A stretch of DNA of 29,712 nt from a virus (lineage: Duplodnaviria; Caudoviricetes): the IMG/VR virus record IMGVR_UViG_3300007670_000008, positions 1 through 29,712 of that record; one strand, written 5' to 3'. Positions 20,896 through 29,712 of the stretch are shown here, in pieces. The notes beneath the pieces were generated by a model. The model was not told where the DNA came from. It made no database searches and worked only from the letters and a program-made list of their open reading frames with translations. Position 1 is the first letter of the stretch. Every line of letters begins with the position of its first letter. The position numbers were made by a program, and so were the translations under genes.

Positions 20896-21933
20896 ATGAA
20901 AAACACCAGCGCAAGGTTTCGACTTAAACAGGACGAAATCCAAATGCTTATGCAATATCGCGGAATAAAAAACGCAACCGATGAAGCAGGAGTAGACGAC
21001 AAAGATGTAAAACACGGATGGCTCAAAACAAAAGACGCAAGTTTATTTTTTAAAAACCCAAACTTTAAACAGGAAGAACTAAACGCGATCCAAAAAATAA
21101 AAGACGAATGCATAAGCGAGGTTAAAAAATACGCACCGAAATACCGAAGCATAGAAACAATTAAAAGCGAGGATACGCATTTATTAGTTATAGACATTGC
21201 AGACCTTCACATAGGCAAACTAGCAACAGCATTCGAAACAGGCGAAGACTACAACAGCCAGATAGCGGTTAAACGCGCAAAAGACGGCCTACAAGGAATC
21301 CTAAACAAAGCGAAAGGATTTAATATAGACAAAGTTTTATTTGTAGCAGGGAACGACATACTACACACCGACAACACCAGACGAACCACCACAGGTGGAA
21401 CACCGCAGGATACAGACGGAATGTGGTACGATAATTTTTTAATGGCTAAAAATCTATACATTGAACTTTTAGAAAAATTAGTTAGTTTTGCAGACGTTGA
21501 AGTTGTCTACAACCCAAGCAACCACGATCTAACGCACGGCTTCTTTTTAATGCAATTAATAGAAGCACACTTTGCTAATTCAACGATCACATTTAATGTT
21601 AATTTGCTACACCGCAAAGCATTTAAGTACGGAAACAACTTGATAGGAACCACGCACGGAGACGGAGCGAAAACAGAAAACCTGCCTTTATTATTAGCAA
21701 CCGAGTTCCCAATTTTATGGAGCGAAACAAAACACAGGTATATATACAGCCACCACGTACACCATAAAACAAGCAAAGATTTTATAGGTTGCACGTTTGA
21801 AACTTTGCGCAGCCCTTCTGGGAGCGACAGTTGGCACCACAAAAACGGATACACAGGCGTACCGAAAGCCGTTGAAGGATACATCCACCATAAAGAATTT
21901 GGCCAGATTGCACGCTTAACTCATATTTTTTAA
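20896..21933 (+). CDS. Calcineurin-like metallophosphoesterase
   Basis: DLHIG, GNDILHTD, SNHD, HGD, HHVHH motifs. Confidence 0.85.
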   Translation: MKNTSARFRLKQDEIQMLMQYRGIKNATDEAGVDDKDVKHGWLKTKDASLFFKNPNFKQEELNAIQKIKDECISEVKKYAPKYRSIETIKSEDTHLLVIDIADLHIGKLATAFETGEDYNSQIAVKRAKDGLQGILNKAKGFNIDKVLFVAGNDILHTDNTRRTTTGGTPQDTDGMWYDNFLMAKNLYIELLEKLVSFADVEVVYNPSNHDLTHGFFLMQLIEAHFANSTITFNVNLLHRKAFKYGNNLIGTTHGDGAKTENLPLLLATEFPILWSETKHRYIYSHHVHHKTSKDFIGCTFETLRSPSGSDSWHHKNGYTGVPKAVEGYIHHKEFGQIARLTHIF

Positions 21934-21941
21934 TATCTTTG
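21934..21941 (+). promoter_or_regulatory. -7 promoter box preceding a short non-coding unit
   Basis: TATCTTTG matches TAnnTTTG; nearest TTG is 23 nt upstream rather than 19. Confidence 0.45.
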
Positions 21942-21943
21942 TA

Positions 21944-21994
21944 TTTCATAGTTAGTTTTAAAGGCGGGAGTTAGAAGCAACCGCCTTTTTTTTT
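21944..21994 (+). ncRNA. Candidate small RNA antisense to early-gene start regions
   Basis: TTTCATAGTTAGTTTTAAA is the reverse complement of TTTAAAACTAACTATGAAA; bounded by -7 box and terminator. Confidence 0.5.
21960..21994 (+). terminator. Rho-independent terminator ending late region
   Basis: AAAGGCGG..CCGCCTTT stem then T9. Confidence 0.85.
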
Positions 21995-22370
21995 GTCACA
22001 AATATTCACAATAAACGGGACGGATCCGATTTGCTTACTTTGTATTTACAACTAAAATCTAAACCCAGACTTTAGATTTGTCTAGTTTTTTACACCAAAA
22101 ACGTGACATTTTTAAGGCTATAACCTTAACAACAGCAAAGACTTTAAGGTTTTAACCTGTCAGAAACCCCGAATTATTATAATATTTAGCGAACACTATC
22201 CCTAATTATGTTACATTTTTAAGCAAAAATTACCCTTGTTATATGTTTTTGCTTTGCACAAGGGTGTAATTTGCCCTTGTTCTTATTTAGAATGAATATT
22301 GATAAGGTTTTTTTCTATTCAGAAAGCCCAATAAACACAAGGGTTTAAAAAAATAATCAAAAATAAGTTA
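21995..22370. other. Longest non-coding region, dense in short palindromes
   Basis: Inverted repeats at 22055-79, 22112-29, 22147-58, 22221-54, 22232-65, 22258-80. Confidence 0.7.
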
Positions 22371-22420
22371 AAAATAAATGTTAAAAAGTATTGCAGTTTT
22401 AAACAAAGTGCGTATATTTG
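22371..22420 (+). promoter_or_regulatory. Early promoter 1 (host sigma)
   Basis: TTG(22391)-N19-TATATTTG(22413); upstream 26 nt nearly identical to 23321.. Confidence 0.85.
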
Positions 22421-22443
22421 TCAAACAAAAACAAACAAACACT

Positions 22444-22605
22444 ATGAAAACACGAAACGAAATTTTAGACTTCTTGGAAGCACAGCAACAAGAGAACAAC
22501 CAGAACACAAATCAACTGCACTTGATTATTCAAACCTTGACTACATTTTTAGAAGACGATCAACTACAGGAAATAGAAAATTTATTTAACCAATTTAAAA
22601 ACTAG
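22444..22605 (+). CDS. Small early hypothetical protein
   Basis: MKTRNEILDFLE..; first ATG after promoter. Confidence 0.65.
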   Translation: MKTRNEILDFLEAQQQENNQNTNQLHLIIQTLTTFLEDDQLQEIENLFNQFKN

Positions 22606-22610
22606 AAACT

Positions 22611-22820
22611 ATGAACATGAGTTACTGCCGATTTCAAAACACATTACTAGACCTACAAGATTGCTACGACAACTTGCCAGACGGAAACCTATCACATGCA
22701 GAATCCAGAGCATTTGCAGAATTAGTGGCACTGGCCAAAGACATCGCCGAAACATACGAGGATCTCGATTATTACCAATTAAAAGATTTAGCAATAGAAA
22801 ATTATAGAGACGAACAATAA
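22611..22820 (+). CDS. Small acidic early hypothetical protein
   Basis: MNMSYCRFQNTLLDLQDC..; flanked by 18-bp direct repeats. Confidence 0.7.
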   Translation: MNMSYCRFQNTLLDLQDCYDNLPDGNLSHAESRAFAELVALAKDIAETYEDLDYYQLKDLAIENYRDEQ

Positions 22821-22840
22821 ACAACTTAAAACTAGAAACT

Positions 22841-22963
22841 ATGAAAAAAGAAACAAGGATCACCAGAACAAGAGAGCAACTACAAATGTCGATATTAAAG
22901 CACGGACATCGGCACTCAAAAACAATTCAATTATTAATTAAATTAAACAACATAAAAAAATAA
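22841..22963 (+). CDS. Small basic early protein (40 aa)
   Basis: Same leader as 22611; MKKETRITRTREQLQMSILKHG.. Confidence 0.5.
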   Translation: MKKETRITRTREQLQMSILKHGHRHSKTIQLLIKLNNIKK

Positions 22964-22967
22964 GACC

Positions 22968-23129
22968 ATGAAAGATTACAGAATTGAATACCAAGACAAA
23001 GACCAGAACGAATTGTTCATAGGCATTGTAACAGCAGTAGACCTGCAAGACGCAACAGACTACGCAAACAAATTATTTGCAGAAACCAAACTAAATGATT
23101 TATATACTTTTGTAATAACTGAACTATGA
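22968..23129 (+). CDS. Small early protein (53 aa)
   Basis: MKDYRIEYQDKDQNELF..; ATGA coupling to next gene. Confidence 0.6.
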   Translation: MKDYRIEYQDKDQNELFIGIVTAVDLQDATDYANKLFAETKLNDLYTFVITEL

Positions 23130-23263
23130 AAAATTTAATCAACTACTTTACACCAGCGACCGAAGAACACAAATCGTTTTTAAGGCACTTTTTAGGCACT
23201 CTAACGGCTTTTATTCTGTTGGGTGGTATGTTTTACTGTTTGATGTATTTAAAAACGATTTAA
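23126..23263 (+). CDS. Small membrane protein (45 aa)
   Basis: MKNLINYFTP..FLGTLTAFILLGGMFYCLMYL; one TM. Confidence 0.55.
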   Translation: MKNLINYFTPATEEHKSFLRHFLGTLTAFILLGGMFYCLMYLKTI

Positions 23264-23370: not shown

Positions 23371-23402
23371 TATAGAATTAAAAACAAACAAAAACTAACA
23401 AC

Positions 23403-23713: not shown

Positions 23714-24046
23714 ATGGAGAATAGAAATTTAGGAGTATGGAACAGGGGCTGGGAATTATTATACGAATTTGCAGGCTGGCAATTTTCGATCGCAGGGACT
23801 TGGGAGTTCAACGATTGGGACGAAGTGAGCGAATACGCATTTATAGAACTTGACGTAGAAGTGAGCGAAAAATGGATAATTGAAACGGACGACCACTTAC
23901 AGCCGCACGTTTTAGGGGTTCGTCTTTTGGAAGATTTGAGACTTGAAATGCAGGAAATAATAAACAGCGATCTAGCAAATTATAATTTTTGGGAATGGAA
24001 GACAAGCAACGATGACTCAAACTATAATTTTTACCACGAACTATGA
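23714..24046 (+). CDS. Acidic Trp-rich hypothetical protein
   Basis: 110-aa ORF, ATGA coupling. Confidence 0.7.
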   Translation: MENRNLGVWNRGWELLYEFAGWQFSIAGTWEFNDWDEVSEYAFIELDVEVSEKWIIETDDHLQPHVLGVRLLEDLRLEMQEIINSDLANYNFWEWKTSNDDSNYNFYHEL

Positions 24047-24327
24047 CAAGCGGAACTATATACGACCAATTAGATTGGTGGCAGCGACAATGGCGGGGTT
24101 CATTTGATTTAGGGTTATACCTTGAAATATGCAGAATTAAAAAAAACGAACAAATAAAATTTAAAACTATGAAACGATTTAAAGCAACTTTTAAAACTTG
24201 GGCATACGTTGGCGCTCCAGTTAAGTTAGAAACACGAATAGTTAAAGCATACGACTTCCAACACGTTAAAAACTTAATACAAAAAAACGACGATATTATA
24301 ATTGAAATTAAACAAATAGAACAATGA
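24043..24327 (+). CDS. Hypothetical protein with probable internal start at 24169
   Basis: 94-aa ORF; in-frame TTTAAAACTATGAAA at 24160..24174. Confidence 0.6.
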   Translation: MTSGTIYDQLDWWQRQWRGSFDLGLYLEICRIKKNEQIKFKTMKRFKATFKTWAYVGAPVKLETRIVKAYDFQHVKNLIQKNDDIIIEIKQIEQ

Positions 24328-24813: not shown

Positions 24814-25170
24814 ATGATAGAACTAATAAAACAAATTATAGAACAGGATCAACTAGGAAACAAAAACCGCAAGCGGGAAATAATACACCGCAGAATTTAT
24901 TTATTTAGAAAACTACGCGAGGACGGATACACGCTCAAAGGAATTGGAGATTTATTTAATTTAAACCACGCGACAGTTTTACACGGACTAAATACTTACA
25001 AAAATTTAGTAGAGACAAAAGACAAAATATTCCAACACGATATCGAATACTATAAACTTCTTTTGAGTTTGGAACGCCCAGAACTTGATCTGCGGAAGGA
25101 AATAAAAGAAGCCAGAAATTTAAGCGACCTGCGGAAAGTTCAACAACGAATCAAAAACAACTTTTACTAA
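24814..25170 (+). CDS. DnaA C-terminal-like HTH protein
   Basis: RKREII..R and GYTLKGIGDLFNLNHATVLHG resemble DnaA domain IV. Confidence 0.7.
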   Translation: MIELIKQIIEQDQLGNKNRKREIIHRRIYLFRKLREDGYTLKGIGDLFNLNHATVLHGLNTYKNLVETKDKIFQHDIEYYKLLLSLERPELDLRKEIKEARNLSDLRKVQQRIKNNFY

Positions 25171-27459: not shown

Positions 27460-27488
27460 CATCTAATTACTAACTTAAAAATTTAACT

Positions 27489-28013
27489 ATGAAACATTTA
27501 TTTAAAGCATTAGCAGAATTTCAACAAGAAGTACCAGTGATCCACAAAGCAACACAAGGCTACGGATACACCTACGCAGACCTTCCGAAAATTTTTGAAG
27601 TGATCAACCCGCTACTAAAAAAACACGGACTAGGATTTACACAATTAATTAATTCAAAGGAAGGAGAAAACTATTTATCGACTATTTTATTTCACGTTGA
27701 AAGCGGTGAAAATTTAGAAAGCAATACATTGATCCCACAGGTAGAATTAAAGCAAATGAATTTATACCAATCTTTTGGAAGCGGAACGACCTACTTTCGT
27801 CGTTACTGTTTGAGTTCGATTTTGGGAATTGTGACGGATAAAGATACAGACGCAGGCGGGGAACAGGTAAAGCCAGAACCAAAAAAACAATCAATAGATA
27901 ACGCACGTTTTCAAAAAGCAATAGACGCAATAAGCAAAGGCGAATATACAACCGAAGAACTAACAACAAAGTTTAGTTTAACACCTGCACAATTAAAAAT
28001 AATAACAGCATGA
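27489..28013 (+). CDS. erf: ERF-family ssDNA annealing protein
   Basis: GYTYADL, LLKKHGLGFTQ, QSFGSGTTYFRRY..DKDTD. Confidence 0.9.
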   Translation: MKHLFKALAEFQQEVPVIHKATQGYGYTYADLPKIFEVINPLLKKHGLGFTQLINSKEGENYLSTILFHVESGENLESNTLIPQVELKQMNLYQSFGSGTTYFRRYCLSSILGIVTDKDTDAGGEQVKPEPKKQSIDNARFQKAIDAISKGEYTTEELTTKFSLTPAQLKIITA

Positions 28014-28770: not shown

Positions 28771-28964
28771 GCGCAAAAGAAAAAGCACAGGAGTTAGTAG
28801 ATAAGTTTATTTCTGTACCTTTATTAGATAGTTATGAAGCCAAACAATGTGCATTAGTAGCAATTGATGAAATGCTAGATTTTAGAAATGCTTTATACAT
28901 TAACGAGGGAAGTTTAGCACACAAGTATTTATTAGACATAAAACAAGAAATAAAAAAACTATGA
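28767..28964 (+). CDS. Hypothetical phage protein
   Basis: MSAKEKAQELVDKF..AKQCALVAIDE..IKQEIKKL; start chosen at ATGA overlap. Confidence 0.7.
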   Translation: MSAKEKAQELVDKFISVPLLDSYEAKQCALVAIDEMLDFRNALYINEGSLAHKYLLDIKQEIKKL

Positions 28965-29056
28965 AAACACGAATTAAAAAACTATGGCAATACTTTTGTT
29001 TCATAAACAAAGAAGTTTTAAAATGCCAAGTATTCACAGGAAGGGGCAAATTTTAA
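28961..29056 (+). CDS. Small hypothetical protein (31 aa)
   Basis: ATGA overlap; allele at 1..52 differs mostly synonymously. Confidence 0.65.
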   Translation: MKTRIKKLWQYFCFINKEVLKCQVFTGRGKF

Positions 29057-29059
29057 TTT

Positions 29060-29545
29060 ATGGTTACTTTTAACTTTCCAAAATCGTTTTGGATAATTGC
29101 AGAACAAATAGGATTAGCCCGCACGGTAGTAAACAAAGAACTAACAATAAAAGCCCCCAGATACGATAGAGGGGAAAAAAACCAACACGTAGACACGCTG
29201 GGCATTTTAGGAGAGTTGATCGCAATGGAATATTTAACACAAAAAAACTATGAGTTTACTGCTGCTCAATTGCTAGATTACAAACCAAGTAAAAACGCAG
29301 ACTTAATTGTTAAAGGGAAACGAATAGACGTAAAGACAAGCAGGAAATCAGAATACGAAATGTTACTAGTAAATGAGGAAGCACACAACAAAGGATTAAA
29401 CAAAATAGATTTATACTTATTTGTTTATGTTTTAAATGAGAGCACCGCAGAATTTTATACTGTAAATTACGATGAAGTAAACAAATGGCCGTGCAAGTTA
29501 ATGAAATACACAAATGCTTTTTATACAAAAATAATAGACCTATGA
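29060..29545 (+). CDS. Accessory PD-(D/E)XK-like endonuclease
   Basis: GILGE..ADLIV..RIDVKT motif; absent from the allele at window start. Confidence 0.6.
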   Translation: MVTFNFPKSFWIIAEQIGLARTVVNKELTIKAPRYDRGEKNQHVDTLGILGELIAMEYLTQKNYEFTAAQLLDYKPSKNADLIVKGKRIDVKTSRKSEYEMLLVNEEAHNKGLNKIDLYLFVYVLNESTAEFYTVNYDEVNKWPCKLMKYTNAFYTKIIDL

Positions 29546-29712
29546 ACATACAAATACAAGACAAAAACGTTTTAAGCGTTATGGCGCGATTTAAAGAACG
29601 TTCGGAAGCAGGAATGAAGAAATACAAGACAACGTTAGAACGAACGGATTTAAGCACGTTAGAATGGCTTACACACGCACAGGAAGAAGCAATGGACTTT
29701 GTTCTTTACTTG
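29542..29712 (+). CDS. Second allele of 56..262, truncated by window end
   Basis: 163/171 nt identical to 56..226. Confidence 0.85.
   Translation, partial: MNIQIQDKNVLSVMARFKERSEAGMKKYKTTLERTDLSTLEWLTHAQEEAMDFVLYL

Follow-up and report, generated by a model that had tools for sequence, protein, structure and literature searches.

Can a phage restrain the translation of a whole class of its own genes with one small RNA? This question is raised by a short gene-less stretch at positions 21934 to 21994 of the window, by which we mean the whole 29,712 nucleotides of virus DNA analysed here (IMG/VR record IMGVR_UViG_3300007670_000008). The original prediction was that a promoter box, a sequence complementary to early start codons and a terminator form a transcription unit there, and that its RNA occludes many early start codons as an early-to-late switch. 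The analysis favours, with a probability of roughly 0.6, a FopS-like RNA that acts as a class-wide brake on the translation of the phage's own early genes.

Gene order and anatomy of the unit

The record is a 29.7-kb virus, 95% complete according to CheckV, with all called genes on the plus strand. PHROG matches assign to the late block the terminase genes (3214 and 3524), the tape measure, portal, holin and endolysin genes and, at its end, a 'DNA repair exonuclease' gene (PHROG 704; 20896..21933, plus strand), whose stop codon adjoins the -7 box described below. The early block starts at 22444 with small genes of unknown function followed by replication and recombination genes, and resumes at the left end of the window with an SSB gene and a sigma-like gene (PHROG). 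The latter (1029-1568; PHROG 1740, E 8e-7) likely starts with TTG and is a candidate late-transcription factor. No match to an integrase or repressor was found among the 51 proteins scanned. For the terminase and exonuclease genes, the closest cultured relatives are Flavobacterium phages (55-58% identity), so that a host of Flavobacterium type is probable for this freshwater-type phage; the search for protein homologues returned close relatives only. The window ends, 1-262 and 28990-29712, overlap with differences; a circular assembly whose ends come from strain variants is the probable explanation. A 68-codon ORF at 56 is repeated near the right end, where it is preceded by a 161-codon ORF (29060) that matches no PHROG or Pfam family.

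Directly behind the exonuclease gene, a -7 box, TTCATAGTT, a linker and an intrinsic terminator are found exactly where the original prediction had placed them. The box, TATCTTTG (21934..21941, plus strand), is of the Bacteroidota primary-sigma type, and the TAnnTTTG motif alone is no rarer in the window than by chance (55 vs 50). Its nearest TTG lies 23 nt upstream, compared to 19 nt in the early promoters, one of which has its -7 box at 22413..22420 and a second at 23363-70 (both plus strand). Among distinct promoters of the clade, a TTG at 18-21 nt is present in 15 of 16 early promoters and in 11 of 29 unit promoters. The available part of a study on F. johnsoniae gives a box-to-start distance of 4-5 nt (PMC6847099). 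With this spacing, transcription of the unit would begin near 21946-47 and yield an RNA of about 48 nt.

TTTCATAGTT is located at 21944-53 and contains the 5' seed TTCATAGTT (21945..21953, plus strand), the complement of AACTATGAA, which is invariant in the relatives and unpaired in the folds. The variable linker that follows (21954..21959, plus strand) extends the predicted pairing, in this phage, to the leaders of 22611, 22841 and 27489. The intrinsic terminator (21960..21994, plus strand) is made up of a hairpin at 21960-88 and a U tract (T run 21986-94); late transcripts reading through would stop there as well. Folding of the unit yields -13.8 kcal/mol and leaves the 5' part unpaired (z -2.6; 2 of 200 shuffles are equally good). 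An E. coli-type terminator scan, which admits loops of 3-8 nt only, misses the hairpin, and an E. coli-type promoter scan was uninformative. An ORF-poor spacer (21995-22400) separates the terminator from the early promoter. In 44 loci of the clade, the stretch from the terminator to the first early start measures 223-840 nt and looks assembled from shuffled short modules, one of which is a perfect inverted repeat in the window (22112-22129); the spacer could hold decoy binding sites or an origin.

A start-codon tag on the early genes

The start contexts described in the original prediction were borne out. AACTATGAAA spans the starts at 22841, 23126, 24169, 27489 and 28961, ACTATGA spans those at 22444, 22611 and 24043, and AAAACTAA occurs in the leaders at 23391, 23702 and 24801; the 18-nt pairing with a 3-nt bulge claimed for 22826-46 is present as well. 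In a hand-curated start list, ACTATG is found at 8 of 23 early starts, at none of the 25 late starts (Fisher p=0.0013) and at none of the six starts at the left end, and the enrichment that had been proposed is thus significant. Since 24169 is an ATG inside the 24043 ORF and in frame with it, the early count becomes 7 of 22 when it is left out. The window contains 20 copies of ACTATG compared to 8.7 expected, a number that none of 100 shuffles reaches, and all seven plus-strand ACTATGAA sites coincide with early starts, the internal ATG at 24169 being one of them.

The mean predicted duplex energy is -8.6 kcal/mol at early starts and -5.6 kcal/mol at late starts (p=1e-4), a gap matched by none of 500 shuffled RNAs. 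The best predicted target, on the plus strand like all the others, is the start at 22841 (22826..22846, -15.1 kcal/mol), followed by those at 22611 (22608..22615, -12.6 kcal/mol), 23126 (23123..23130, -12.0 kcal/mol), the in-frame ATG at 24169 (24166..24173, -11.3 kcal/mol), 28961 (28958..28965, -9.8 kcal/mol), 24043 (ACTATGAC; 24040..24047, -9.4 kcal/mol) and the first early start, 22444 (ACTATGAA; 22441..22448, -9.1 kcal/mol). The start of the Erf-like annealing protein gene at 27489 (27486..27493) is a predicted target by duplex and by clade context, the ACT context being present in all five other fully fetched clade records with the gene. The replication genes at 25170 and 25732 carry no tag, which counts against the early-brake reading. 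Among the late starts of the window, only that of the holin gene (19575) fits the seed, via a G-U pair; ATT or GTT precedes its ATG in all seven clade records mapped, a context that may just reflect overlapping Leu-stop codons.

Conservation among close relatives

The unit proved to be conserved in related phages. Eighty viral loci with the exonuclease gene (84-100% identity) were compared, and in all 78 that extend far enough TTCATAGTT lies 3 nt past the box, which is of TA type in 72 of the 80 relatives, of GA type in six and truncated in two. What varies across the clade is the distance to the stop codon, the linker, which comes in four types, and the hairpin, whose types are unrelated; in one of these, 6 of 14 aligned sequences carry an A-U/G-C double change. 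In the commonest clade hairpin, the loop contains GCUCCCCAGC. CUCCC(C) is also kept in the loops of Sphingobacterium-type chromosomal copies and is absent from the window hairpin; the conserved loop motif (L009:1534-1591; L678, L708, L716, L720, L721, L724, L725; G035:C5) is possibly a shared protein-binding or second pairing site. Two loci (L038 and L075) have a GIY-YIG/NUMOD3 gene between the exonuclease stop and the intact unit, and this gene, inserted at the exonuclease 3' end, finishes with a near copy of the last exonuclease codons.

The tag is likewise distributed unevenly in the relatives, in which ACT is found at 67 of 280 distinct start contexts downstream of the unit (the early side) and at 1 of 320 upstream (the late side). 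Compared to a Flavobacterium sample with ACT at 10 of 241 starts (18 stretches of one MAG), it is enriched at early-side starts (p=3e-11) and avoided at late-side starts (p=0.001). These contexts come from a simple gene caller of our own, which recovered 43 of the 47 annotated starts on snork6-1, and the clade loci are kin, so that the counts are not independent. The leaders share little beyond ACTATGAA and therefore do not represent one copied repeat. Within the clade, the four linker types do not covary with the leaders. Of the pairing originally proposed, only the seed of 8-9 nt is conserved; the 18-nt match and the AAAACTAA leaders belong to a single linker type.

Whether units pair best with the genomes that carry them was assessed on 38 hand-picked loci, some of them related (43 minus five with fewer than 10 genes; four ORFs overlapping their own unit were left out). 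Own-genome pairing beats foreign pairing in 27 of the 38 loci. The mean difference is -1.1 kcal/mol, which 0 of 20000 permutations reproduced; with shuffled RNAs, the two controls came out at -0.11 and +0.02. The own genome is among the top three for 13 loci, compared to three expected, and the window ranks first. The covariation of seeds with early start contexts that the original prediction had anticipated was not found in a simple test by seed class: ACT and ATT starts do not track AGT and AAT seeds across lineages (p=0.40), and G032, L656 and phage 11b combine AGT seeds with ATT starts, a combination that G-U wobble could allow. In five cultured Flavobacteriaceae phages, ACT is present at only 0-2 of 46-68 starts; the ACT tag is therefore a trait of the window clade.

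Distribution in distant phages and on chromosomes

The scan pattern TATATTTG-N2-5-TTCAT-N30-60-S-T7 finds at least 120 loci (an estimated 530 or so). A strict terminator follows in 71 of the 120 matches listed; these comprise 52 distinct hairpins and include, by our count, 17 members of the window clade. With the control motif TTACT, the whole collection yields 118 loci, of which 13 have a terminator. Of 59 distinct terminator-positive units, 50 have TTCAT 3-4 nt behind the box, whereas the spacing distribution of the control is flat. A -33 TTG is present in 25 of 63 distant units compared to six expected. Among the units listed in whole records, 6 of 24 face opposite to the upstream gene and therefore cannot be 3' tails. 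Unit length ranges from 48 to 74 nt with a median of 60 (116 distinct units), and in most distant units the seed is followed by a U-rich, G-sprinkled tail, the mirror of the A-rich Bacteroidota leader. Patterns that do not demand a terminator return mostly background, with a terminator in only 27 of 119 and 46 of 119 matches.

In GTDB, a terminator is present in 16 of 92 loci, and nine of the 11 with known titles are Bacteroidota. The Sphingobacterium-type copies examined sit among ordinary chromosomal genes. Among 401 sampled Bacteroidota genomes, 17 match the pattern, close to the 11 obtained with the reversed pattern as control; the strict pattern is therefore rare on chromosomes.

A cultured phage also carries the unit. 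In Flavobacterium phage 11b (NC_006356.2), a box-TTCATAGTT-terminator unit lies at 30326, between the last late and the first early gene, and its best predicted targets are gp1 and gp58. ATTATG is found at 10 of 27 early and 4 of 38 late starts of this phage (p=0.015), although early and late duplex energies are alike (p=0.25). The gene ahead of the unit is unrelated to the last late gene of the window. A BLAST comparison of two units with cultured phages revealed no close relative of the window unit. The cultured phages snork6-1, Fpv5 and JQ contain gene-less box-to-terminator units with other 5' sequences, none with TCAT at the 5' end (L200:1729, L200:12880, L201:19888 and L808:34707), and the unit of Fpv5 is located at the late/early boundary.

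Comparison with known regulatory RNAs

The FopS RNAs of B. thetaiotaomicron invite comparison with the window unit. According to the available parts of the FopS study and its supplements (PMC11697453), from which all FopS particulars are taken here, these RNAs are 65-70 nt long, start from a canonical promoter, keep the seed at their 5' end open and finish with a terminator. Binding by RbpB and repression of susC/PUL mRNAs belong to the FopS profile as well. Bacteroidaceae chromosomes have 12-15 copies, and a single one was noted in a Caudovirales phage. In vitro, FopS-10 blocks the translation of susC, and compensatory rescue was shown; it begins with the same UUUCAUAGU core as GibS, and predicted FopS pairings cross the AUG. 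By eye, the 9-nt core UUUCAUAGU near the 5' end is common to the window unit, FopS-10 and the consensus. The window unit further resembles FopS in its canonical sigma-ABfr-type TAnnTTTG promoter at a fixed distance (with a poorly spaced -33 TTG), in a 5' stretch that is single-stranded and precedes an intrinsic terminator, and in predicted pairing over the AUG and A-rich leader of many mRNAs.

The differences concern length, with a window RNA of about 48 nt (about 48-57); copy number, the unit being single in the virus record, with two copies seen in one Sphingobacterium genome; and the conserved seed, which measures 8-9 nt in phage units and at least 20 in FopS. In addition, the predicted targets of the phage unit are the carrier's own early genes, marked by a tag from which late genes are free. 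Compared by eye, the linker of the window is similar, with a 2-nt gap, to the consensus of the FopS R1'/41-nt motif, whereas most clade linkers are A-rich. Rfam 15 gave no match at gathering score and, on 10 loci, no FopS match at E<=1, the presence of a FopS model in that release being unconfirmed. The unit is not filed as a FopS member because length and copy number differ, the extended seed is doubtful, and homology is inseparable from convergence on the leader consensus. By analogy, the window unit likely works like FopS. Since FopS with the same 5' core blocks translation at start regions, the mechanism itself is not new; the phage's own early genes as targets would be a new use of it.

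GibS of Bacteroides, as described in the available part of PMC7366714, pairs around start codons and represses. It shares its 5' core with the window unit (primer AWO-241) but is 145 nt long and has a second seed, R2, and a non-canonical promoter, all of which the window unit lacks. The GibS model (Rfam RF04182) has no match at the unit, its best score in the window being 14 bits elsewhere, compared to a cut-off of 115.

P1 c4 and P4 CI are phage regulatory RNAs that act by base pairing. Phage small RNAs with known targets are few and include lambda OOP, PreS and VpdS of VP882, according to the available part of a recent preprint (bioRxiv 10.1101/2024.10.31.621285), which also supplies the details that follow. 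Like the putative RNA of the window, they are phage-made and pair with their targets, some of which are phage genes. OOP differs in being antisense against the cII-O mRNA. PreS was found via Hfq-based capture and has mainly host targets; in that part of the preprint, none of the three is described as aimed at a start-codon tag common to a temporal gene class. In the open-licence literature, no description of such a unit in phages was found beyond the one FopS copy.

Proposed mechanism and alternative explanations

In the proposed mechanism, the host RNA polymerase would transcribe the RNA of about 48 bases from the TAnnTTTG box, and the seed at its unpaired 5' end would bind across ACUAUGAA at the start codons of roughly one early gene in three. 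This pairing would lower the translation of the tagged early genes as a group, while the late genes, which lack the tag, would escape. The claim of an anti-start-codon RNA directed against the early class gains support from conservation, the control scan, the contrast between early and late starts and the preference for own over foreign genomes, whereas strictly late timing is not supported, the -7 box being of the host-sigma type. Since this box is like that of the early promoters, the RNA may be produced already in the first minutes and be supplemented by late read-through. It would then accumulate alongside the early mRNAs as a delayed brake, which the host-type promoter makes likelier than a strictly late switch, and late transcripts ending at the same terminator could reinforce the brake later. 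The conserved seed of 8-9 nt is AU-rich, contributes about -9 kcal/mol and is much shorter than the FopS pairings; a chaperone may therefore be needed.

The strongest competitor, itself improbable, is that the RNA aims mainly at host mRNAs, as FopS does, the early phage tag being secondary. It would then dampen genes with RYUAUGAA starts, such as those for exported or outer-membrane proteins, for takeover or receptor shut-down. FopS hits host susC starts in the available parts of its description (PMC11697453), RYTATGAA is found at 22 of 241 sampled Flavobacterium starts (part of one MAG, which may not be the host), and several of the top-ranking host duplexes fall on genes whose products resemble signal-peptide proteins; the avoidance of the tag by late genes and the chromosomal copies in Sphingobacterium would fit as well. 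Host targeting leaves unexplained, however, both the enrichment of perfect complements at early starts, with duplexes of -11 kcal/mol or better at 7 of 23 early compared to 6 of 260 host starts (p=1e-5), and the preference for own over foreign genomes. The earlier suggestion that the RNA may also hit host mRNAs thus holds in so far as host starts can pair, few of them strongly (the same 6 of 260).

A slightly less probable alternative keeps the strict early-to-late switch: the seed would act within the 3' end of the late mRNA, as a tail or processed fragment, and repression would occur only with late transcription. In the window clade, the box abuts or nears the last late stop codon, and the -33 spacing is poor, at 23 nt in the window and outside 18-21 nt in all but the 11 of 29 distinct clade promoters. 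The contigs of two freshwater metatranscriptomes, which carry no strand or size information, represent both early and late genes of relatives. One RNA-library contig, 106 nt long, begins at 21889 and ends in the U tract at 21991, as a tail would, and carries little weight as a single unstranded contig from one study; the lack of cover by RNA contigs at 22004-22337 proves nothing. Conservation of the box and its spacing speaks against a mere tail, as do the 6 of 24 listed units that face away from the upstream gene.

The least probable explanation is that no regulatory RNA exists, the unit being a terminator flank, an inverted remnant of a start region or a minigene, and ACTATG simply the preferred strong early start of the clade. 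Raw matches lacking a terminator (92 of 119) do mostly resemble reverse complements of ordinary starts, AU-rich sequence pairs readily, and the sample of 401 genomes yielded 17 genomes compared to 11 for the reversed control; on the other side stand a seed that is invariant while hairpins are swapped, the fixed box spacing, the control scan and the rarity of ACT at the starts of the five cultured Flavobacteriaceae phages. The 55-codon antisense ORF (21782..21949, minus strand) that the original prediction had offered as its alternative is rejected as a gene, since it measures anywhere between 6 and 108 codons in 78 relatives, with at most 17 in 38 of them, and the small-RNA reading stands over it. 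The ORF has no PHROG or Pfam match. An A-rich run lies ahead of the hairpin in 61 of 75 loci, and a minus-strand transcript would therefore end ahead of the ATG.

Implications

Small phages that lack their own RNA polymerase need a way to lower the activity of their early genes, and a 9-nt seed together with a start-codon tag appears to provide it at the level of translation. Initiation in Bacteroidota works without Shine-Dalgarno pairing, a feature that the class-wide brake appears to exploit. The FopS mechanism would thereby be extended from the chromosomes of gut Bacteroides to an estimated several hundred phage contigs, and the idea can be tested directly in Flavobacterium phage 11b, a cultured phage with such a unit at the same late/early boundary. 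More tentatively, and with the odds rather against so broad a claim, many Bacteroidota phages may carry a one-RNA, class-wide brake in which a FopS-like RNA has co-evolved with a start-codon barcode borne by dozens of unrelated early genes. Since seed and barcode are common to a large recombining freshwater clade, the RNA would then also silence the early genes of superinfecting relatives, and phages would be the reservoir from which FopS-type RNAs reached chromosomes.
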